Shown: in pieces, positions 1 through 20,001 of the stretch
Numbering within the stretch: the first letter of the stretch is position 1
Layout: the number at the start of each line of letters is the position of its first letter
From: a virus
Taxonomy: Duplodnaviria; Heunggongvirae; Uroviricota; Caudoviricetes
Strand: one strand, 5' to 3'
Length of the DNA stretch: 26,478 nt
IMG/VR virus record: IMGVR_UViG_2721755724_000002
Made by a program: the position numbers and the translations under genes
The notes under the pieces: model-generated
What the model was told of the DNA's origin: nothing
Database searches by the model: none
What the model saw: the letters and a program-made list of their open reading frames with translations, nothing else

Positions 1-915
1 ATGTACTCAATAAAAAAAGTAACCATGCTCTTGGGGTGCCTCGCCCTCACCTGCTCGATCGCATTTCAGGCGAGTGCAACTGAAAAATTCAAGGTCATTA
101 CAACATTTACCATCATCGCAGATATGGCCAAAAACGTGGCTGGAGATGCTGCAGAAGTCTCATCCATAACCAAGCCCGGTGCAGAAATTCATGAGTATCA
201 GCCTACCCCTGGCGATATTAAACGTGCGCAGGGGGCACAACTGATTCTCGCCAATGGTATGAATCTGGAATTGTGGTTCCAACGCTTTTACCAGCATCTT
301 AATGGGGTTCCAGAAGTAATTGTCTCTTCGGGTGTGACGCCAGTAGGGATCACTGAAGGCCCCTATGAGGGCAAACCTAACCCCCATGCCTGGATGTCGC
401 CAGATAATGCTCTGATTTACGTCGATAATATTCGTGATGCGTTGATAAAATACGATCCGGCAAATGCACAAACCTACCAACGTAATGCCGATACTTATAA
501 AGCCAAGATTACCCAAACCCTTGCCCCCCTGCGTAAGCAGATTGCTGAACTCCCTGAGAATCAGCGATGGATGGTCACCAGTGAAGGGGCTTTTTCTTAT
601 CTCGCACGCGATTTGGGGCTAAAAGAGCTTTATCTGTGGCCGATTAATGCCGATCAACAAGGCACGCCGCAGCAGGTACGTAAGGTTGTTGATATGGTGA
701 AGAAAAATCATATCCCGGCAGTCTTTAGCGAGAGTACGATTTCCGATAAACCAGCGCGTCAGGTTGCGCGTGAAACCGGCGCGCACTACGGCGGTGTACT
801 CTATGTCGATTCCCTGAGCACAGAAAACGGCCCGGTACCTACGTATATCGACCTTCTGAAGGTTACTACCAGTACGCTGGTACAGGGAATTAAAGCCGGG
901 AAAAGGGAGAAATAA
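1..915 (+). CDS. sitA: Periplasmic Mn/Fe-binding protein of an ABC transporter (SitA/YfeA/MntC family)
   Basis: 304-aa ORF with ATG at position 1; hydrophobic N-terminal signal sequence; close resemblance to YfeA/SitA solute-binding proteins ([30 protein letters not shown]); stop overlaps the next ATG (TAATG). Confidence 0.85.
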
Positions 916-1787: not shown

Positions 1788-3245
1788 TTAGGAGCGCCAA
1801 AAAAAACCTGAAAACAATATAATAACAGGATAAATTTCAAGGCGACCAAGAATCATAGCTATGCACATTAAATATTTTGCAATGTCATTAAGCACTCCGA
1901 ATGACGATGCAGTAGCCCCAAAACCTAATCCCATATTATTAATACATGCAGCCACTGTTGCAAATGATGTAAGAAAATCATATCCCATACCATTTAACAC
2001 CAGTATAAAAAACACCGTGAAGAGAGTATAAAGAAAAAAGAAACTCCATACAGACCTCATTACACGATCTGTAACTATCTTCCCTCCTACATTTACACTC
2101 AACAACGCTCTGGGATGAGAAAGCTGATTTATCTCGTGTTTGCTTTGTTTGAAAAGTATAAGAAATCGAAGTGACTTAATTCCACCACAAGTTGAACCTA
2201 TACATCCCCCAAAGAAACTTGACGACAGCAAAAACACTATCGTGTGCGTGGGCCAGTTTGCATAATCCTGCGTAGCTAAACCATTATCAGTGAGCATGGA
2301 GCTGGCAAGAAAAAACGAATGAATAAAACTTCCATGCAAGTCATACATACCTATATGCCAGACCTGGAAAGAGGTAACAATGATCACCCCTAAGGCTATT
2401 AACAGAAAGAAACGAAGTTCAATATCTCTGATTAAAGGTTTTATCGTTTTCCTGCTAATAACAATATACCAAAGAGTGAAGTTGAAAGCCGATAGCAGGG
2501 AAAAAGAACCAGCCACCAGCTCAACCAAATAGTTATTAAAATATCCGATACTCTCGCTATGAGTTGAGAAACCACCAAGCGAAACTGTGGAAATCCCGTG
2601 ACAAATAGCATCAAACAAAGGCATTCCTGCAAGTCTATAACAGACAATACAAGCAATACCTAATAAAGAATAAGTTATCCACAGTGTCCGTGACGTATCG
2701 GCCAGGCGGGGAGTGAGTTTGTCATCCTTAAATGGCCCCGGCATTTCTGACTGATAAAGCTTTGCACCACCAATACCCAATAATGGCAATACAGCAACCG
2801 CCAGAACAATAACTCCTAAACCACCTATAAAATTTAACTGTGACCGATAGTACAAATATGCCCGAGGTAATGAACTAACATCATCAATTACAGTTGCTCC
2901 TGTTGTTGTTATTCCAGAAACCCCTTCAAACAGAGCATCAATGAACGTTAAATTAAGTTCTGAGTCAATCCATAAAGGGAATGCACTAATAACAGAAAAC
3001 AAAATCCAAAACATTACAATTATAATAAACCCATCACGGGTACGTAATTGAATGCCAGATTTCTTAGTTGTATACCACGCTCCGCCACCAATGCAAAAAA
3101 ACATAACGAAAGTTATAAAGAAAACGAACAGGCTTTTTTCTTTATAAAACAATGCTACAACCATTGGTGGCAACATTGAAAGACTATAGAGCCAAACCAG
3201 AAACCCACACATATGAGTAACAACTCTTACATGAGATGTATTCAT
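1788..3245 (-). CDS. trkG: TrkG/TrkH-family potassium uptake membrane protein
   Basis: Polytopic membrane protein with TrkH-type repeats; AT-rich gene, as for Rac trkG. Track ORF starts at TTG 3263; first ATG (MNTSHVRVV) at 3245 gives 485 aa. Confidence 0.85.
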   Translation of the reverse strand: MNTSHVRVVTHMCGFLVWLYSLSMLPPMVVALFYKEKSLFVFFITFVMFFCIGGGAWYTTKKSGIQLRTRDGFIIIVMFWILFSVISAFPLWIDSELNLTFIDALFEGVSGITTTGATVIDDVSSLPRAYLYYRSQLNFIGGLGVIVLAVAVLPLLGIGGAKLYQSEMPGPFKDDKLTPRLADTSRTLWITYSLLGIACIVCYRLAGMPLFDAICHGISTVSLGGFSTHSESIGYFNNYLVELVAGSFSLLSAFNFTLWYIVISRKTIKPLIRDIELRFFLLIALGVIIVTSFQVWHIGMYDLHGSFIHSFFLASSMLTDNGLATQDYANWPTHTIVFLLSSSFFGGCIGSTCGGIKSLRFLILFKQSKHEINQLSHPRALLSVNVGGKIVTDRVMRSVWSFFFLYTLFTVFFILVLNGMGYDFLTSFATVAACINNMGLGFGATASSFGVLNDIAKYLMCIAMILGRLEIYPVIILFSGFFWRS

Positions 3246-3382
3246 ATCTAAATATTCTTTCAATTATAACCACCTTGCTGCAATATTATGATTATACTGT
3301 ATAAAATTTAACTCCTCTTAGATCTTACTTCACTGTTCCTTATGAAACAATCATCAAAATGAATCATATTGTAGTTAAGATT

Positions 3383-5240: not shown

Positions 5241-5315
<75 letters not shown>

Positions 5316-5318
5316 GCA

Positions 5319-5396
<78 letters not shown>

Positions 5397-7731: not shown

Positions 7732-7887
7732 TTACTCCTCAGGTTCGTAAGCTGTGAAGACAGCGACCTCCGTCTGGCCGGTTCGGATTCGTACCTCGCA
7801 GAGGTCTTTCCTCGTTACCAGTGCCGTCACAACGACGGTTAAACAGATGACGATCAGGGCGATTAACATCGCCTTTTGCTGCTTCAT
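7732..7887 (-). CDS. hok: Hok-family type I toxin (host killing membrane peptide)
   Basis: Reverse complement 7887-7732 translates to MKQQKAMLIALIVICLTVVVTALVTRKDLCEVRIRTGQTEVAVFTAYEPEE (51 aa), a Hok/Gef-family sequence; below the 60-aa cutoff of the track. Confidence 0.85.
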   Translation of the reverse strand: MKQQKAMLIALIVICLTVVVTALVTRKDLCEVRIRTGQTEVAVFTAYEPEE

Positions 7888-7945
7888 AGCCTGCTTCTCC
7901 TTGACCTTTTGGTCGGTAAGAGGCTAATCTACGTATGCAAAGCAT
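7739..7945 (-). CDS. mok: Mok-like overlapping reading frame (modulation of killing)
   Basis: 68-aa ORF in another frame starting upstream of hok (ATG 7945) and ending near the hok stop, the arrangement of mok in hok/sok loci. Confidence 0.55.
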   Translation of the reverse strand: MLCIRRLASYRPKGQGEAGYEAAKGDVNRPDRHLFNRRCDGTGNEERPLRGTNPNRPDGGRCLHSLRT

Positions 7946-8189: not shown

Positions 8190-8490
8190 GTTAACCTCCT
8201 GCATTTGACACTCGCATGTGCTGATAAATATGTGGATGTCTCACTGGTGACTCAATAAAACTATTTGGTGTACTTAGTCTATTTTTTTTCTGTGCAACAC
8301 AACAAACCGTCACCACCAGCACTTCCTAAATGCGCTGAGTCAGACACAAGCCAACATTTTAGTCCGCTTTGAGCGAAGAGCGGACATTGATGCCCCCACA
8401 GGCTTTGAAAATATTCAATATAATCACTCCTTGAGTATAAGTTATGTAGCGGAGGAATACATCCGCTACTTTTTAATGTTATGACAGTAA

Positions 8491-11052
8491 TTAATATTTG
8501 AATCTTTTGTTTGGTATGATTTTCAGTTTTTTTGCTAAAGCCGTTAACTTTCTTAAGCGCCACTTAAGGGTGGACTCAGTTAATCCTTCCCCTGCAATAC
8601 CTTTAAAAATTTCATAACAAGGCTGACCAGCGTGTATTGCTTTCCAGAAATCCTCATAGCCGTCATCAAGTATTTGAGCTGTAAGTGCCTCATTAAGCTC
8701 TTCAATATTAGATACTGCTAAGTGCCCATCGACTAAAACACCAGCATTATTTAAATCAGATTTTGCTTTAAGCGCTTCTTTTCCAGTAGGCTCTTTACCG
8801 TTCAGTATCAAGCTGGTAACTTCAATCATTTTAGCGTGAGATGTTACAGGGAAGAAAAGCCCTTTATTTCCTGCCCTTAAGCCCGAAATTTTCTTAAGAT
8901 TTCCTAACTCAGCTGTTGCATCATTATGCGACACATCTGAGGCAATAATGCGACCTTCCCCATCAATTTCTATAATTTTTAGGGCAAGTAACCATGACTT
9001 TAAAATCGTAGAGTATAATCCCCATGTTTTCTCTGATGCCTCAATAAAAGGATAAGACTCAGAAAAATACGTGGGTATATCGCTCTCGAAAACTTTTTCT
9101 CCAGAAAGAATTTTTTTAAGTAAAGTCTCGACGAGTTGATTGTCTAAAATTTTTCGGCGTAGATAACCAGCAAGGGTTCCTTGAGAATATATATCCCTAA
9201 CATTGGTTGGAATTATCCATTCACCACTTTTAACTGCATCAAGCAAGTCTAAATTCCGCAATTCCTTAACGAGATTAAATGCGTAACCTTCCCTTACATT
9301 TAGATTTTCCGTTATTTTTGTAATTGTCAGCTTTCTCATTGTTATCAGTTTATGAAACTGGGATATAACAGAGCTTGGATACATTCTATAAATAACCAGC
9401 AGTCTAAATTCAGGAAGCTTTTGGTAGACAAGATATTCTTTGAAAACATCGTTATAAGTATCATAGGTAGAACCACTCAAGCGTACCAATCTGTAAGCTG
9501 TTAACTTATCGAGGACTTTTACAAGCATTGGGTCTTCGTCAAATTGGTATTGAAGCTCATTGAAATCTGCTGGTAGCTTAGCTGCAATCTTAACTAGATA
9601 ATCTTTTTCAATCTCATCCAAACCTTCAAGCTCTTCTTCAAAAAGGTCGTTCAGTTTTAAGCCCGCACTGATTAAATCCCTCTGAGAGTCACCTTTTCGA
9701 GTGAGTTTTAAAACATGAGCTATCGTTCTCTTTAAAAGCCAAGGAAAACCCTGCGCAAATTCAATAATATAGGGTAGTATTTCTTTACTGAGAATATTAG
9801 AGTTATTTTCATTTATTTTTTCTAAAAGAAGTATTGATTCTTTGTTTTCAAAATCCGGAAGAGTAAAGCTTTTCGATAGCTGATTAATTCTATTAAGAGA
9901 AACTTTACTGTTGTCATAGGTTGTTAGCTGATCATTTTTACGCGCAAACACTATGTATACACCACCACGAAGCTTTGTTATTGAGTTCGCAATGTATTCA
10001 TAGCAATCGAAAATGTCAGGATTCGAGAATGTAGATTCAAATTGGTCAACAAAGAAAACTGCCTTTTGGCCATTTAGTGAAAGTTGCAAGTCTTTCAGTT
10101 GTTCATCAAGTTCTATAAAATTAGTCGCAATAATGCTGCTTTGGGTAAACCTCTGAACAAGATAAAAAACATCATATATTGTTTTTACATCCCTTGAGTC
10201 ATGTAATTCAGTAATAACCCCATCCATTGAGAGCTTGTTTTCTAAAAAGGATACAAGAGAGCTTTTTCCTACTCCAGAGCGACTTTTTATCTGAAGAACA
10301 TGTGGTAGCTCATTATGTTTGATGTGAGAAAGAAGTTCACCTATGAATTCAGTCCTGCCAACGAACACAGTTGGCCCTGCAGGTAGCCTATAGTCAGCCC
10401 ATTCAGTCCCAACAGTTAATCCTCGAACTATTTCACGCTTTACTTGAGGCATTTCGTCAACTATTTTTTTCTTGCTAGGCATAATGAAATCCAAACCAGC
10501 AAGTTCTGAAATCCCTATTTTTAAATTTTCCAAAAATCTTTCATCATCAATTTGGCTGCCACTTTTATTGAATACCACAAAATTTGATGGCGTTCCTGAA
10601 TTTACCTCTTTTAAAATAAATAACTTATACAACCCCGTATCAGTCTTGAGAATGTTTGGGGCCACAAGGTCATAACCTTTAATTTCCTTATGTAGAGATG
10701 TTTCAGTCGGCAAATGCAAAGTCGCAGTTATTTGGTTATAAAGTTCCTTTCCTACCTTTGTCGTTAACCCCATATTTTCGACAGTTCGAAAATAATCTTC
10801 CGCCTCCGGTGTTAATGGTGATAATGACAGAAATAATCCATGCACCTTTTTTTCCAGAAGACCTAGCGGCAAAAGCTTTCCAACGAACGCAGCAACTGTT
10901 TGTCCACTCATGCTTTTGCTGTGTGCTTTAGCTTCGCCAATAATCTTTTGGCCAGTTGCTCTAGAGAATCCTTCAATGTCGTACTCTAAACTAGATTCTT
11001 TTTTCCTTAACTCAATGTCGTATCCAGAGCCTTCCAAGTATTCTTTTAACAA
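8491..11052 (-). CDS. Mrr-like nuclease + STAND-type P-loop NTPase protein; candidate antiphage defence effector
   Basis: 853-codon ORF, strongly AT-rich. N-terminus has a PD-(D/E)xK/Mrr-like pattern (EYDIEGF...IIGEAKAH); P-loop KSRSGVGKSSL at residues ~255-265; Walker B-like AVFFVDQFE near 336; GFPWLL (GxP-like); ~350-aa helical C-terminus. Start is TTG at 11052 without a good Shine-Dalgarno, so the 5' end is uncertain. Confidence 0.75.
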   Translation of the reverse strand: MLKEYLEGSGYDIELRKKESSLEYDIEGFSRATGQKIIGEAKAHSKSMSGQTVAAFVGKLLPLGLLEKKVHGLFLSLSPLTPEAEDYFRTVENMGLTTKVGKELYNQITATLHLPTETSLHKEIKGYDLVAPNILKTDTGLYKLFILKEVNSGTPSNFVVFNKSGSQIDDERFLENLKIGISELAGLDFIMPSKKKIVDEMPQVKREIVRGLTVGTEWADYRLPAGPTVFVGRTEFIGELLSHIKHNELPHVLQIKSRSGVGKSSLVSFLENKLSMDGVITELHDSRDVKTIYDVFYLVQRFTQSSIIATNFIELDEQLKDLQLSLNGQKAVFFVDQFESTFSNPDIFDCYEYIANSITKLRGGVYIVFARKNDQLTTYDNSKVSLNRINQLSKSFTLPDFENKESILLLEKINENNSNILSKEILPYIIEFAQGFPWLLKRTIAHVLKLTRKGDSQRDLISAGLKLNDLFEEELEGLDEIEKDYLVKIAAKLPADFNELQYQFDEDPMLVKVLDKLTAYRLVRLSGSTYDTYNDVFKEYLVYQKLPEFRLLVIYRMYPSSVISQFHKLITMRKLTITKITENLNVREGYAFNLVKELRNLDLLDAVKSGEWIIPTNVRDIYSQGTLAGYLRRKILDNQLVETLLKKILSGEKVFESDIPTYFSESYPFIEASEKTWGLYSTILKSWLLALKIIEIDGEGRIIASDVSHNDATAELGNLKKISGLRAGNKGLFFPVTSHAKMIEVTSLILNGKEPTGKEALKAKSDLNNAGVLVDGHLAVSNIEELNEALTAQILDDGYEDFWKAIHAGQPCYEIFKGIAGEGLTESTLKWRLRKLTALAKKLKIIPNKRFKY

Positions 11053-11399
11053 CTCTTCAAAAAGTAACCCCTTGTAATAACTAGTGTTTTTTTTCAGTTT
11101 GTTCAGAGTGAAAAAATAAAAACATTAAACAACTCCATGTAACTATTATTGATGAGTTATAACGCTCATTAAATTGGTCAAACCGCACTTAAAACGTGGC
11201 TTCCCCATACTAGAAAATCTACTATAAAGAGGATTACATTGCACCTTTAAATTTTAGAGATTTATAAGTGAGACTAATAATCTCGCACTGTATAATCGCA
11301 GGGTAACACATCTTTCAAGCGCCTAGGTGCTCAGATATAAGCCAGATATTAATATAGTGCTCACTATTCCTCGAAAGACCTAGAATGACCGCTTCCGGC

Positions 11400-12680
11400 T
11401 GTGAGTTCAATCAGTGGATGCAACGCTATCCTTAATCAAGGGGGACGTTGCCATGAAACGAAGAACTCGGATTAACTACACGCCAGAGCAGAAGGCAATT
11501 ATCTGGGACAGATATAAGCAAGGTGATTCTCTCCATGATATCGCCAGAATGTTCGACAGATATCATTCTTCCATTATGCCCACTATCCACCAGACAGGGA
11601 GCTACCGTCCTCCCGTGCGAAAACGGTACCGATTAGCGCTTTCGCTTGATAAAAGAGAGGAGATATCCAGAGGAGTGGTAGCAAAACTCAGTATCAGGGA
11701 CATCGCCGCCAAATTATCAAAAGCGCCTTCAACGATTAGCCGCGAGGTCAGGAGGCACGGAGGTGCCAAACAATACCGTGCAGCAAAAGCCGATACTGCT
11801 GCATGGGAAAATGCTCTGAGACCAAAACCTTGCAAGCTAATTGAAAGCCCACATTGTGTAAAATCATTGCAGAGAAGATGCATCAGGACTAGTCGCCGGA
11901 ACAGATCGCCGGCTGGCTGAAACGCTGTTATCCGGATAATCAGGAAATGCATGTGTCACACGAAACGATTTATAAAACGCTTTTTATACAAACCCGGGGT
12001 GCATTAAAAAAAGAACTGCAGCAATGCCTCAGAAGCGGAAGAGCGGTTCGTAGATCCAGAACATCATCGCTTAAAGGGAAAGGGTTAGGGTCAATCCCAG
12101 ATACGATACCAATAAGCGAAAGGCCACCTGAAGTTGCAGACAGAGCCATACCGTGTCACTGGGAAGGTGACCTGATCCAGTGCTCGAAAAACTCCTTTAT
12201 CGTCACCCTCGTAGAACGCCATTCCCGCTTTGTTATGCTGGCAAAAATCAGAGACAACAAGACCATAACGGTTATATCTGCACTCATCAGACAAGCCCGG
12301 GAATTACCTGTTGAGCTTTATAAAACACTAACATGGGACCGGGGCGCTGAAATGACCAGCCATACCCGGTTTACTGTAGCGACAGATATTCAGATTTATT
12401 TCTGTGATCATCAATCTCCATGGCAACGCGGCTCAAATGAAAATACAAACAGATTACTCAGACAGTATTTTCCAAAAGGAACTGACTTATCAGTTCACAC
12501 AGTGTTGCCAGACAGCTCAACGAGCGGCCAAGAAAAACGCTAGACTACGAATCACCCGCAGAACGGTTCAATAAGTGTCTTGCGTCCATCAGTTTAACTC
12601 ACAGCGAAAAGCAGAAGTTCAAAATTTTTCATAACGACTGATGAGAACAACTCCAATTATCAAGTTTACTGGTACCTCTG
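11400..12680 (+). mobile_element. IS30-family insertion sequence, degenerate
   Basis: Left end TGTGAGTTCAATCAGTGGATGCAACGC at ~11400 resembles the IS30 left inverted repeat; internal transposase is IS30-like. Right end placed by element length; I could not find a clean right inverted repeat. Confidence 0.65.
11453..12641 (+). pseudogene. IS30-family transposase, inactivated by two frameshifts and a nonsense codon
   Basis: IS30-like segments lie in three frames: RPKPCKL (from ATG 11453); then KPTLCKIIAEKMHQD-stop-SPEQIAGWLKR, where TAG at 11890-11892 replaces the conserved Trp codon and a frame change falls near 11845; HWEGDL...WDRG...SPWQRGSNENTN in the 11947 frame; C-terminal QLNERPRKTL...FHND after a second frame change near 12505. 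Confidence 0.75.
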
Positions 12681-12737
12681 CCAAGCGTACTTAGAGGTCT
12701 ATGTCTAAACCACCCGCCATGCAGGTGGTTGATTTAC

Positions 12738-14342
12738 CTAATTAGGCCTTGCTTGAATCGCAGACTCTATAGCTTCTCGGAATTCCGGAGCATCACTTCT
12801 TAATCGATAATCATCAAGTGTATTGAATATTTCTAGAAGTTCTTTACGATAATACGGCGATGCCAAATTACCTTCGCCTCTAGTTGTGAAAATTAATAAT
12901 GAGTCAGCGACGTCTTTTAATTTTTTATTCCTTTTCAATCTAATGTAACAAGACACAATTATACCAAGAATATCTTTCCTAGATTTCAAAGTGAGTTTTG
13001 AATTAGGCAAAACCAACTCCAACATAGCACCAAGTAATTTGGTAGCCTCTTTTGAAATATAATGAAGATCGAAATTTTCTGTTTCTTTATTTTCTTGAAG
13101 GATGTCCCTTTCATCTATCCATTCGCATTGTTCTGCCCAATTTATAGCGATGCTAAATAAATGACAGAGAAGGAAGTGAAAAGGTGTTTCCCATTCACCA
13201 CTATATTCATTCGACTGCCTATTCATATTCTTTATGATTTTCTTTGCAAAATGTGTATAGTAATGCAGCCATAAATGATCCTGAAGCCCCTGATGAATAC
13301 CTTCATGAACCATGATTTCAAACAGCGTGATCCCAGAGTAAATAGGACATTTATACTTCGAAACATCTGAATAAGAACCTAAAGATTTATTAAGTGTAGC
13401 AATAATTTTTTCATCTTCATCTAACCTCCAGTAGATATATTCACCGATGTCACGGTATATTGCTAAATCAGCCGCAAACTTAGCATTGGAAAAGAAAAAA
13501 TGTAATATACGATTGTTTTTCGGGATCAACAAACGATGCCCTCGACTAACGTTAAGATTATTTTTAAGCTCAACATATAGACGACTGTTAGGTGAATCTA
13601 GTAATGCACTGATAAAATTAGAAGTAAAGTCAGAACGAACTATTGGTTCGATCTTGATTAACTCAAGGCAGAGGGATGGGTGCGCAAGTGCAAAGTGATT
13701 GGTAAGTTCAGGTGATGAGACAATATTTAATAATGCTTCATGTGCATATTCGGCAGCAGTCTCGCGATTAGAGATGCGGAGATTGTTAGCTATCTTATCA
13801 CAAAGTCGATTCTTCACCGGACTATCAATTATTGATATCAACTTTTCTAGTTGAGGTGCCAACAATTGTGCCAGATCATCGTATCGTTTAGTAAGGTGCA
13901 AATTTTCCACTAACTCTAGAAATATTCCTGTTCTTCCAACTGAAAGTTTAGGTTTTTTTAAGCGAAATAAAATGTAAATAGCAACTGCGAGTGATATCAG
14001 GTATACGGCACTTGAACTATCTAATCCCCATTTCCAGGGGCCAAAACTAAAATATAAGTCTAGTGATTTTAAAGCTGGTGCAAACACCAAATAATTGCTT
14101 AGTAAGAATGCGAAACCAACAATTGCCCAATCCCACCACGCCAGGCAGAACCTCAAACGTAGTCGAGCGTTTGGAGTAATAAGGGCCCATACGGCAGCAA
14201 TAACGCCCAGTATGGTAAGTAGACTTGAAGTATCAATTTTGGTTGGCGGTGTCATAATTTCTCTTGTAATCATGGTTTGATGTACATCGGAATGGCTTAA
14301 CATGATAAGGCTCTTTGTATTATAAATCAGAACATTATGCAC
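12738..14342 (-). CDS. Membrane-anchored protein of unknown function with HEXXH motif; candidate defence-associated gene
   Basis: 534-codon ORF, strongly AT-rich; three predicted TM helices in the first ~125 aa, then ~400-aa helical soluble region with HEGIH (residues 346-350, plus 13293-13307). Track start is GTG 14342; alternative ATG at 14303. Confidence 0.65.
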   Translation of the reverse strand: MHNVLIYNTKSLIMLSHSDVHQTMITREIMTPPTKIDTSSLLTILGVIAAVWALITPNARLRLRFCLAWWDWAIVGFAFLLSNYLVFAPALKSLDLYFSFGPWKWGLDSSSAVYLISLAVAIYILFRLKKPKLSVGRTGIFLELVENLHLTKRYDDLAQLLAPQLEKLISIIDSPVKNRLCDKIANNLRISNRETAAEYAHEALLNIVSSPELTNHFALAHPSLCLELIKIEPIVRSDFTSNFISALLDSPNSRLYVELKNNLNVSRGHRLLIPKNNRILHFFFSNAKFAADLAIYRDIGEYIYWRLDEDEKIIATLNKSLGSYSDVSKYKCPIYSGITLFEIMVHEGIHQGLQDHLWLHYYTHFAKKIIKNMNRQSNEYSGEWETPFHFLLCHLFSIAINWAEQCEWIDERDILQENKETENFDLHYISKEATKLLGAMLELVLPNSKLTLKSRKDILGIIVSCYIRLKRNKKLKDVADSLLIFTTRGEGNLASPYYRKELLEIFNTLDDYRLRSDAPEFREAIESAIQARPN

Positions 14343-14624
14343 ACGGTTAACAATACCCTCAAAATGGCATTAATTAAATGGACACTACTTGTCCACTCAG
14401 TTTTTTTAGTCGGCTTTTTCCGACTAACGTTTGGATGTCCTATTGAAATTACGCGCCTTACATGAGCAACACTGCAACTGCATGTTTATCATAGGGATTG
14501 TGCTAATCAAATTACTGAAGCTTAAGGTCCGCCCCTGGCACAAAACAGACAACCACGCTAGCCGTATCCTGTGCCATGAAACTGTCAATTCACATATGAA
14601 TTAGTGGTCTTTAATCTCGTCACT

Positions 14625-19297: not shown

Positions 19298-19749
19298 CGA
19301 TTAAAACGTCTGCTCCTACTGTTCCAGAATAACTTCATAAAGTGGGAGTATTTTTCGGTGACGAGATAATAAGAACAGTTTGCGCCATCACTCTGATGTT
19401 GAATGATGCCCTTCCGTTCTAATTTTTTCATAACCGGGTTACGGCAAGGAGAAGTGATAATAAGATTTCCTGTTTTAAGGAAATCTTTAAATACAGCGAT
19501 TTCTTTCTCAGATAAACGAAGCAATACTCGTTGCTCTGGTAGCAATGAATAATGTTTTTGAATATGTGCTCGCAATCTTGAGAAGGAAATGGCAACCACG
19601 AAAGAAAAGGCAAAAACTATAATCTGAAAGAGCCAGGTTATTTCAGTATAAGCATTAAATACGACAGCAAACTCTTTCGGTATCAGCCAGAGAGTGAGGC
19701 CAAAAATGATAATCGTGTACATAAGTCTTTCGATGTGGCTCTTTAGCAA
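19294..19749 (-). CDS. sieB: Superinfection exclusion protein B-like membrane protein
   Basis: Two N-terminal TM segments (TIIIFGLTLWLIP; WLFQIIVFAFSFVVAISF) and position between immunity region and kilR as for Rac sieB; track start is TTG 19749, first ATG at 19722, neither with a clear RBS. Confidence 0.6.
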   Translation of the reverse strand: MLKSHIERLMYTIIIFGLTLWLIPKEFAVVFNAYTEITWLFQIIVFAFSFVVAISFSRLRAHIQKHYSLLPEQRVLLRLSEKEIAVFKDFLKTGNLIITSPCRNPVMKKLERKGIIQHQSDGANCSYYLVTEKYSHFMKLFWNSRSRRFNR

Positions 19750-20001
19750 AAAGTTTCAACAATGGAGTAAATACATCCAACATTTCAATAACTCTCGACT
19801 GTAAGGGTATTGAAATGTTAACACAAGCTCTCGCTGTAGGGGTATAGCCGAGACCACCGAAGCCCGGAGGTGGTGAAATAAAACCGGGCACAACACGAAG
19901 GCGCATTTCCGATATCCATAAAGAGTCGGTCTTGTCTGTTAAATATAAATGGTGGGAGTGCGCCTCCGGTTGTGAATAACGACATTGCTGTGTGTAGTCC
20001 T

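Follow-up and report, generated by a model that had tools for sequence, protein, structure and literature searches.

A gene carried by a Rac-type lambdoid prophage of Escherichia coli encodes a predicted three-helix inner-membrane protein and travels as an independent single-gene cassette, exchanged intact among enterobacterial genera and insertion sites. We analyzed the whole 26,478-nt stretch recorded as the virus IMGVR_UViG_2721755724_000002 (Caudoviricetes; hereafter, the window), which is 100% identical to strain 127 (NZ_CP023377) and includes the Rac genes intR, xisR, recET, kilR, sieB, cI/cro, ydaT, ydaV, DUF1627, DUF977, lysis genes, trkG, and terminase. We propose that the membrane-protein gene (hereafter, the target) encodes a stand-alone inner-membrane protein that is carried as cargo by mobile elements and defends its host from phages or other invading DNA, a reading that we judge to be about evenly balanced between right and wrong. 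Residues are numbered either in the longest open reading frame (ORF; 534 aa) or in the true coding sequence (CDS; 505 aa).

The gene, its cassette, and the adjacent NTPase

The longest ORF at 12738–14342 lies on the minus strand, and translation of the plus strand is interrupted by stop codons throughout. The ORF reported in the initial annotation is real, but the length of 534 aa, which counts from a GTG start, gives way to 505 aa from M30. Every full-length homologue in two alignments (35 sequences, and 69 more down to 41% identity) begins at the equivalent of M30 (MTxxxxIDT...), with a 5'-truncated sequence (P0102) as the lone exception, and RefSeq annotates 505 aa for the target in the identical strain 127, so we take the shorter frame to be the true CDS. 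The ORFs of distant loci (L006, L009–L012) open exactly at the same position, and no homologue aligned to the 29-codon extension in either alignment. The CDS is AT-rich, as had been noted, with a GC content of 36.8% compared with 50.7% in adjacent Rac genes, 46.8% in the neighboring insertion sequence (IS), and 44.3% across the window. Ratios of nonsynonymous to synonymous substitution rates (dN/dS) were 0.07–0.25 in pairwise comparisons with five orthologues, and therefore the protein is under purifying selection; the target is a real, selectively maintained gene.

In the cassette, which is ~1.93 kb long, the CDS is flanked by ~290 bp on its 5' side and ~125 bp on its 3' side (Table 1). At ~92% DNA identity it recurs in Leclercia, Pectobacterium, a metagenome-assembled genome (MAG), and other E. 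coli, among entirely different neighbors. The homology limits of IS-free variants correspond to window positions ~12603/12671 and 14541/14550, and at least five unrelated contexts share these cassette ends. In all contexts the gene is accompanied by the ~290 bp before its ATG, in which we located a candidate sigma-70 promoter, while a hairpin past the stop codon, a weak terminator candidate, is kept in the 92%-identical variants except for one loop base. No convincing terminal direct or inverted repeats that might explain the mobility of the cassette were detected, and an Rfam scan of the cassette returned nothing. A 152-bp segment of the 3' flank is missing from the window (at ~12672) and present in all four 92%-identical variants (E. 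coli, Pectobacterium, Leclercia, and the MAG), where it lies between the terminator-like hairpin and the cassette end. The MAG contig (JAEYLX010000008.1; L005), which carries the enterobacterial cassette at 92% DNA identity, is labelled Bacillota; it is probably mis-binned or contaminant DNA.

The gene for an 853-aa NTPase lies on the same strand as the target, as the initial annotation stated, with an IS30-family element between them. The annotation raised the possibility that the target is the upstream partner of a two-gene system that this element later split. We considered this in the form of one former operon for a sensor and a membrane effector, made up of the genes for the 853-aa Mrr/STAND NTPase and for the 505-aa membrane protein. 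The shared orientation of the two genes, their similarly low GC contents (36.8% and 36.5%), and their joint carriage, in 35 E. coli genomes, on a block of 6.2 kb would fit such a history, and defense systems are known in which a STAND NTPase works with a separate membrane effector. However, all co-occurrences of the two genes trace to that one block, at 98.7–100% identity, and represent a single evolutionary event. Only two of the 52 target-family loci counted contain the NTPase, namely the Rac prophage (L001) and an unrelated E. coli island in strain EC1515 (L002); both hold the block, which moved between such sites as one piece. No NTPase relative was found by tblastn within up to 10 kb, as far as contigs and flanks permitted, in 20 species-level target loci, nor was one seen in the other contexts examined. 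Among 5426 complete E. coli genomes the NTPase gene occurs in 35, always at ≥99% identity and matching the count of ≥99% target copies, whereas ~41 genomes with a 93% variant of the target gave no megablast match to it (at ≥~85% identity). Conversely, NTPase copies of 96–98% identity, truncated by IS3 and frameshifted, reside on Salmonella and Enterobacter IncF plasmids with no target-family gene within 6 kb, and the target cassette occurs without the NTPase in Leclercia, Pectobacterium, and E. coli Gabija islands. Each gene also keeps its own ~300-bp 5' flank. We therefore consider an ancestral two-gene system extremely improbable, this being the outcome that the initial annotation itself had named as refuting the pair: the NTPase is a separate, independently mobile defense candidate that was brought beside the target at the IS30-family element, and the two should be treated as separate systems.

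The position of the IS bears on the same question. The element is full-length and ISCfr4-like, 92–93% identical to plasmid-borne IS30/ISCfr4 copies over window positions ~11381/11389–12605/12619, and its transposase is annotated in RefSeq as 'frameshifted; internal stop'. Its right end falls within a few bases of the 3' boundary of the target cassette, where the IS-free variants diverge from one another. Because the IS end coincides with the cassette's own 3' boundary, the element joins two independent cassettes and splits no operon, contrary to the suggestion that it interrupts a unit. We considered whether a 73-bp segment (12603–12675) shared with IS-free variants might be a remnant of IS30, in which case the IS would be ancestral, and rejected the idea: the plasmid IS copies end at ~12605–12619, and the segment is mostly native 3' flank. 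The IS is conserved at 97% inside the block at its second genomic site, and the 6.2-kb block thus moved after the arrival of the IS.

In the NTPase we detected an nSTAND1 domain (Pfam, E = 6e-8) and a weak N-terminal Mrr_cat match of 20.1 bits, just below the Pfam cut-off of 21 bits; PADLOC gave no match. Table S10 of DefensePredictor lists the EC1515 allele (WP_021536679.1, annotated as 877 aa) as a predicted novel defense gene, with a mean log-odds of 6.17 and an HH match to Rst_TIR-NLR.

Membrane anchor, helical domain, and the HEXXH motif

Hydropathy, structure prediction, and charge distribution agree on a predicted inner-membrane protein with three N-terminal transmembrane (TM) helices followed by a soluble helical region of ~400 aa, as the initial annotation had described. 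Kyte–Doolittle 19-residue windows reach ≥1.6 at residues 7–30, 43–62, and 78–100 (505-aa numbering), and an AlphaFold2 (AF2) model built from an input alignment of 70 sequences (mean predicted local distance difference test, pLDDT, 82.7; predicted TM-score, pTM, 0.77) places helices at residues 10–25, 40–57, and 80–100, the remainder being all-helical with a solenoid-like fold. An Arg-rich loop (RLRLR) follows TM1 and a KKPK...R stretch follows TM3, while the GPWKWG loop, which connects TM2 to TM3, is neutral; the membrane region and this loop are strongly conserved among relatives of ≥39% identity. From the Arg/Lys clusters after TM1 and TM3 we infer, by the positive-inside rule, a periplasmic N-terminus and a cytoplasmic C-terminal domain.

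Neither domain resembles a described protein family. At E ≤ 1 the target matched no Pfam family, including Peptidase_U49 (PF10463) and repeat families, and none in PADLOC-DB v2.0.0 (2023); NCBIfam (June 2026) gave no meaningful match, a sequence-profile search of the PDB gave two chance matches only (E ~ 0.3), and Pfam searches with six other family members, four distant relatives included, returned nothing relevant. The sole library match was phrog_13820 (PHROGs v4), which aligned over its full length (residues 1–505 to profile positions 1–505; E = 0, 1046 bits). This is the same family as the target, and the entry carries no function, recording phage or prophage occurrence only. Structural comparison pointed to HEAT, ARM, and TOG alpha-solenoids at 5–14% identity, high root-mean-square deviation, and Foldseek TM-scores ≤0.27, with no match at E ≤ 0.001; on the AF2 model, this likeness is generic helical-repeat similarity and not evidence of homology.

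The target contains exactly one HEXXH motif, the HEGIH at residues 346–350 (534-aa numbering) that the initial annotation had pointed out with the caution that such a motif can arise by chance. The caution was apt, since 2.3% of composition-matched shuffles carry a single HEXXH. Within the target clade, however, the motif is no random occurrence because it is near-invariant: across 70 relatives of 41–92% identity, H346 is kept in 67, E347 in 69, H350 in all 70, D355 in all 70, and H356 in 69. Conservation deeper in the family, examined in a MAFFT alignment of 140 divergent representatives with a median identity of 25% to the target, is of another kind. There H346 is kept in 9, E347 in 86, and H350 in 59, and the full H-E-x-x-H in only 7 of the 140, so that conservation of the motif across homologues holds for the target clade and not beyond it. 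A Comamonadaceae clade at 31% identity has Leu in place of the first His and a Chthonomonas MAG has Gln (L/Q-E-G-L-H), while relatives at 18–20% identity (a Saprospiraceae MAG and Stx phages) have all three residues replaced (R-A-S-I-V and S-T-A-I-F).

These patterns weigh on the idea that the target is a membrane-bound zinc metallopeptidase in which HEGIH(x5)H forms a zincin- or metzincin-like center and which kills or protects by proteolysis. Its model would be the Lit protease of prophage e14 (Peptidase_U49), a prophage-borne HEXXH abortive-infection enzyme. Besides the near-invariance in the target clade, the His spacing H-E-x-x-H-x5-H, which is that of metzincins, occurs in 0.05% of shuffles, and in the AF2 model the motif closes a helix and is followed by a loop. 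On the other hand, close members in which Y, N, or Q replaces the first His or the Glu are otherwise intact, the AF2 model has no beta-sheet and no match to a peptidase fold, and no curated peptidase family was found in Pfam (E ≤ 1), NCBIfam, or the PDB profile search. Given the lack of family-wide conservation, the all-alpha fold, and the missing peptidase match, the metallopeptidase reading, which the initial annotation had already called weak, fails as a family property, and we regard it as very unlikely for the target. Target and Lit thus share a prophage location and an HEXXH, and differ in profile, in fold, and in the conservation of the motif.

What the family does conserve is a block around the motif, FEIMVHEGIHQGLQDHLWLHYY in the target, whose family-wide form is F-[DE]-I-M-V-x-E-A-L-x-Q-x-I-x-W-H-M-W-L-Y-Y. 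In this block F312 is kept in 135, M315 in 133, H327 in 137, W329 in 130, L330 in 130, and Y332 in 131 of the 140 representatives (505-aa numbering). The top conserved positions of the whole protein are, in 534-aa numbering, S253 and E258 (0.99), H356 (0.98), F341, W402, M344, W358/L359/Y361, and E383. Because these include near-invariant polar residues within the helical domain, we propose that S253, E258, H356, and E383, together with E347, may line a pocket; the HEGIH overlaps a conserved block of this putative pocket. In the target clade, S/T346 to H and W355 to D arose beside pre-existing E347, H350, and H356 and so produced the H-E-x-x-H-x5-H spacing. Since the changes to the first His and to D355 are specific to this lineage, the site does not qualify as a canonical zincin center. 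Two other motifs considered around H356 were rejected on inspection of the alignment: an HEPN motif (Rx4–6H), there being no conserved Arg at −5 to −7, and an HD motif, the pair being W/D-H and not H-D.

A more elaborate possibility, which we consider quite unlikely, is that the family is a new-fold single-protein immune module with an active site of S253, E258, H356, and E383 at the inner membrane face, and that the enterobacterial, Pseudomonas, and Burkholderiales clade evolved a metzincin-spaced metal center on this all-alpha scaffold. If true, a defense protein would have acquired a metalloenzyme site by independent evolution. The residues worth mutating are S253, E258, H356, and E383, beyond H346, E347, and H350 alone.

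Family distribution and genomic neighborhoods

By an exhaustive profile search we identified 832 clusters (at 50% identity) with E ≤ 1e-3, of which 389 reach E ≤ 1e-30. The best-scoring 150 representatives are nearly all full-length, about 450–610 aa, with no extra domains. Family members are found mainly in Gamma- and Betaproteobacteria, with copies on plasmids in rhizobia; MAGs of other phyla contribute a small number of distant ones. The 90% cluster of the target has 648 members, and every named member examined is a 'hypothetical protein'. In E. coli the target is patchily distributed, occurring in 85 of the 5426 complete genomes. Several copies are split by frameshifts (E. coli H48–H55, L005, and L014) and appear in RefSeq as two 'hypothetical protein' fragments, which indicates recurrent decay; frameshifted copies are common among accessory defense genes. 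A distant member of 517 aa (20–22% identity, E = 3e-25; L038 5995–7548, in Stx2c phage LC727877) lies beside a 407-aa ORF taken to be a phage integrase. This Stx relative, also annotated 'hypothetical protein', has no HEXXH (S-T-A-I-F) and is present in 24 Stx1a/Stx2c phage records and 35 E. coli genomes.

The loci of the family recurrently combine mobile elements with known defense systems. In Klebsiella, the gene neighbors an integrase and a YafO toxin gene on ~110-kb non-mobilizable IncFIB plasmids, three of which were deposited as phages. An E. coli island holds it with a Gabija-like OLD-TOPRIM/UvrD pair and an ATPase/Cap4-nuclease pair, and in Yersinia it adjoins putAbiC. Integrase islands carry it with HNH and Vsr genes in Pseudomonas aeruginosa and with a type I restriction-modification system and an AAA/S8-peptidase pair in Citrobacter, whereas in P. 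putida it lies between Lamassu and a reverse transcriptase. Of the distant members, one is found by an integrase and AbiEi/AbiEii and one by a CHAT protein and an IS. Among the 115 ORFs surveyed around 18 species-level loci there were two strong Gabija pairs, two DRT reverse transcriptases, two type II methyltransferases, and four AbiL/PARIS-type ATPases, as well as integrases, DUF932, and RadC. By this qualitative tally, known defense systems and mobile elements recur beside the family in unrelated genomes, and from this genomic association we give a defense or exclusion role of the target roughly even weight.

In a Pseudomonas integrative and conjugative element (ICE; L059), the family member is accompanied by a 991-aa AAA_21/SMC ATPase and, 2.5–3 kb downstream, by genes for a Lit-like Peptidase_U49 (11170–11754; 2.5 kb away) and T5orf172. 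A genuine HEXXH abortive-infection protease is therefore a neighbor of the family, not a relative.

BLASTP clustering of flanking ORFs across 22 loci revealed nothing common to more than 4 of them, and thus there is no conserved partner gene. In one subclade, of Delftia, Xanthomonas, and Stutzerimonas (L039–L052, L006, L009, and L017), a convergent DUF3800 gene follows the target homologue, and in L039–L052 a Lamassu-type ABC-3C triplet (CTD7, MC3, and LmuB_C) follows beyond DUF3800. This subclade occupies at least two insertion sites, one by an integrase and YhcG and one by a DnaE2-type polymerase gene. We considered DUF3800/Lamassu as a conserved partner and rejected it, the association being limited to one subclade whose neighbors are themselves 81–100% identical and represent one island type.

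Candidate roles and comparison with known systems

We hypothesize that the target would be expressed constitutively in the lysogen from its own promoter, in the manner of a prophage moron, and that the membrane anchor would keep the cytoplasmic domain against the inner surface of the membrane, the entry site of phage genomes and ejection proteins. There, the putative pocket might bind or modify an infection-specific target. We are far less confident of any specific chemistry than of protection as such. Several observations count against this proposal. The target has no PADLOC, Pfam, or NCBIfam match and no mention of it was found in the literature; the proposed pocket is deduced from conservation among homologues only; and the all-alpha solenoid could equally be a passive scaffold. 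In a consensus scan, promoter-like sites were no commoner in the region than in shuffles. The defense association is qualitative, without a background-corrected score. One lineage (P0101; L062–L064) runs counter to the defense-island pattern and lies among ordinary housekeeping genes, for a DegP-like protease, ferredoxin, rubrerythrin, CtpB, and NDK, with 16 metagenomic contigs alike, and one distant member has an ambiguous context.

The last of these observations are what would be expected if the target were not a defense protein at all, and instead an accessory or housekeeping membrane scaffold (an envelope, transport, or mobile-element fitness factor) that hitch-hikes in variable regions. 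The lack of a recognizable effector domain, the use of solenoid folds as typical scaffolds, and the qualitative nature of the defense-island association would agree with such a role. Several features nevertheless favor defense cargo over a housekeeping function, because a housekeeping gene accounts poorly for the patchy distribution in E. coli, a GC content foreign to the host, cassette transfer between genera, repeated frameshift decay, and recurrence beside at least six different known defense systems and integrases. We accordingly consider a non-defense role doubtful.

The main mechanistic rival to direct protection is an abortive-infection effector, in which the cytoplasmic solenoid would sense a phage protein and the three-helix bundle would oligomerize, depolarize or permeabilize the inner membrane, and kill the infected cell. 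The initial annotation had proposed an independent membrane-associated abortive-infection factor; independence is borne out by the cassette and its contexts, and membrane association by the three predicted TM helices, which leaves the mode of action. Many abortive-infection effectors are small TM modules, and the strong conservation of the membrane region with its GPWKWG loop, the occurrence as a single-gene system in defense islands, and the adjacency of putAbiC or AbiE in some loci are all compatible with such an effector. The most conserved positions of the superfamily, however, are cytoplasmic polar and aromatic residues and not TM residues, a better fit to an active or binding site than to a variable sensor, and there is no sign of a neutralizing partner or of toxicity control. 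We regard this effector model as unlikely, while noting that the present data do not separate abortive infection from direct defense.

For the protective role that we favor, the nearest worked example of membrane-tether logic, by analogy, is SNIPE (PD-lambda-1), a membrane-tethered protein whose cytoplasmic nuclease cleaves phage DNA only during injection (PMC13190303). Both SNIPE and the target are single proteins of ~500 aa in E. coli accessory DNA. SNIPE, however, combines a single TM helix with a DUF4041 DNA-binding domain and a GIY-YIG nuclease, whereas the target has three TM helices and no Pfam domain; there is no detectable homology between them, the target lacks a PADLOC match even though PADLOC includes PD-lambda systems, and the likeness is one of logic only. 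The nearest prophage analogue is SieA of P22, which, with similar proteins, belongs to the prophage-encoded single-gene inner-membrane proteins that are expressed in the lysogen and block incoming phage DNA (PMC10883804). SieA types are confined to phages and active only on P22-like phages (PMC10883804). The target family bears no sequence relationship to SieA and differs from it in being large, in having a conserved 400-aa domain, presumably cytoplasmic, and in occurring as often in chromosomal islands, ICEs, and plasmids as it does in phages.

Literature searches with the target accessions and phrog_13820 found no mention of either, and keyword searches gave comparators only. The family is absent from Pfam, NCBIfam, and PADLOC, and its architecture and fold are unlike any described so far. 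As a candidate it is good but unproven, and there are many others of this sort. Should protection against phages be its role, the defense catalogue would gain a widespread single-gene system of 832 clusters, borne by Rac and Stx prophages and Klebsiella phage-plasmids among other carriers. As the family has no known domain or structural relative, its mechanism would be new, and it would provide a second example, after SNIPE, of membrane tethering that confines activity to the site of phage entry.

Table 1 Features of the window, in window coordinates; residues in 505-aa numbering unless stated
Feature	Position	Strand	Remarks
Mobile single-gene cassette	~12612..14541	minus	
Target CDS	12738..14255	minus	505 aa plus stop codon (12738–12740); RefSeq WP_073511866.1, 'hypothetical protein'; member of phrog_13820
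N-terminal extension of the longest ORF, 29 codons, GTG start	14256..14342	minus	spurious; corresponds to the 5' leader
Candidate sigma-70 promoter, TTGAGG-17-CATAAT	14334..14362	minus	~80 nt upstream of the ATG, inside the cassette; 9 of 12 consensus matches
Hairpin CCACC-TGCATGGC-GGGTGG, then TTT	12714..12728	minus	starts 10 nt past the stop codon; weak terminator candidate
Membrane region, residues 10–100	13956..14228	minus	predicted from hydropathy and AF2
TM1, 10–26; TM2, 43–62; TM3, 80–100			predicted from Kyte–Doolittle hydropathy and AF2
All-alpha domain, residues 101–505, solenoid-like fold	12741..13955	minus	AF2 model; probably cytoplasmic
Family signature block	13257..13322	minus	residues 312–333, or 341–362 in 534-aa numbering; contains HEGIH (13293–13307)
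853-aa NTPase gene	8491..11052	minus	
IS30-family element, ISCfr4-like, full-length	11381..12612	plus	transposase frameshifted; not part of the target unit
Composite block of NTPase cassette, IS, and target cassette	8361..14541	minus	6197-bp alignment, 98.7% identity to strain EC1515 (L002)
tRNA-Gly(tcc) and tRNA-Thr(tgt)	5243–5396	minus	annotation of the identical strain
hokD	~7734–7889	minus	annotation of the identical strain
sieB, frameshifted	~19300–19789	minus	annotation of the identical strain
trkG	~1791–3248	minus	annotation of the identical strain

Other cargo of the Rac prophage listed in Table 1 includes the two tRNA genes, which lie upstream of the lysis genes, and the toxin gene hokD, which lies just past the NTPase cassette.

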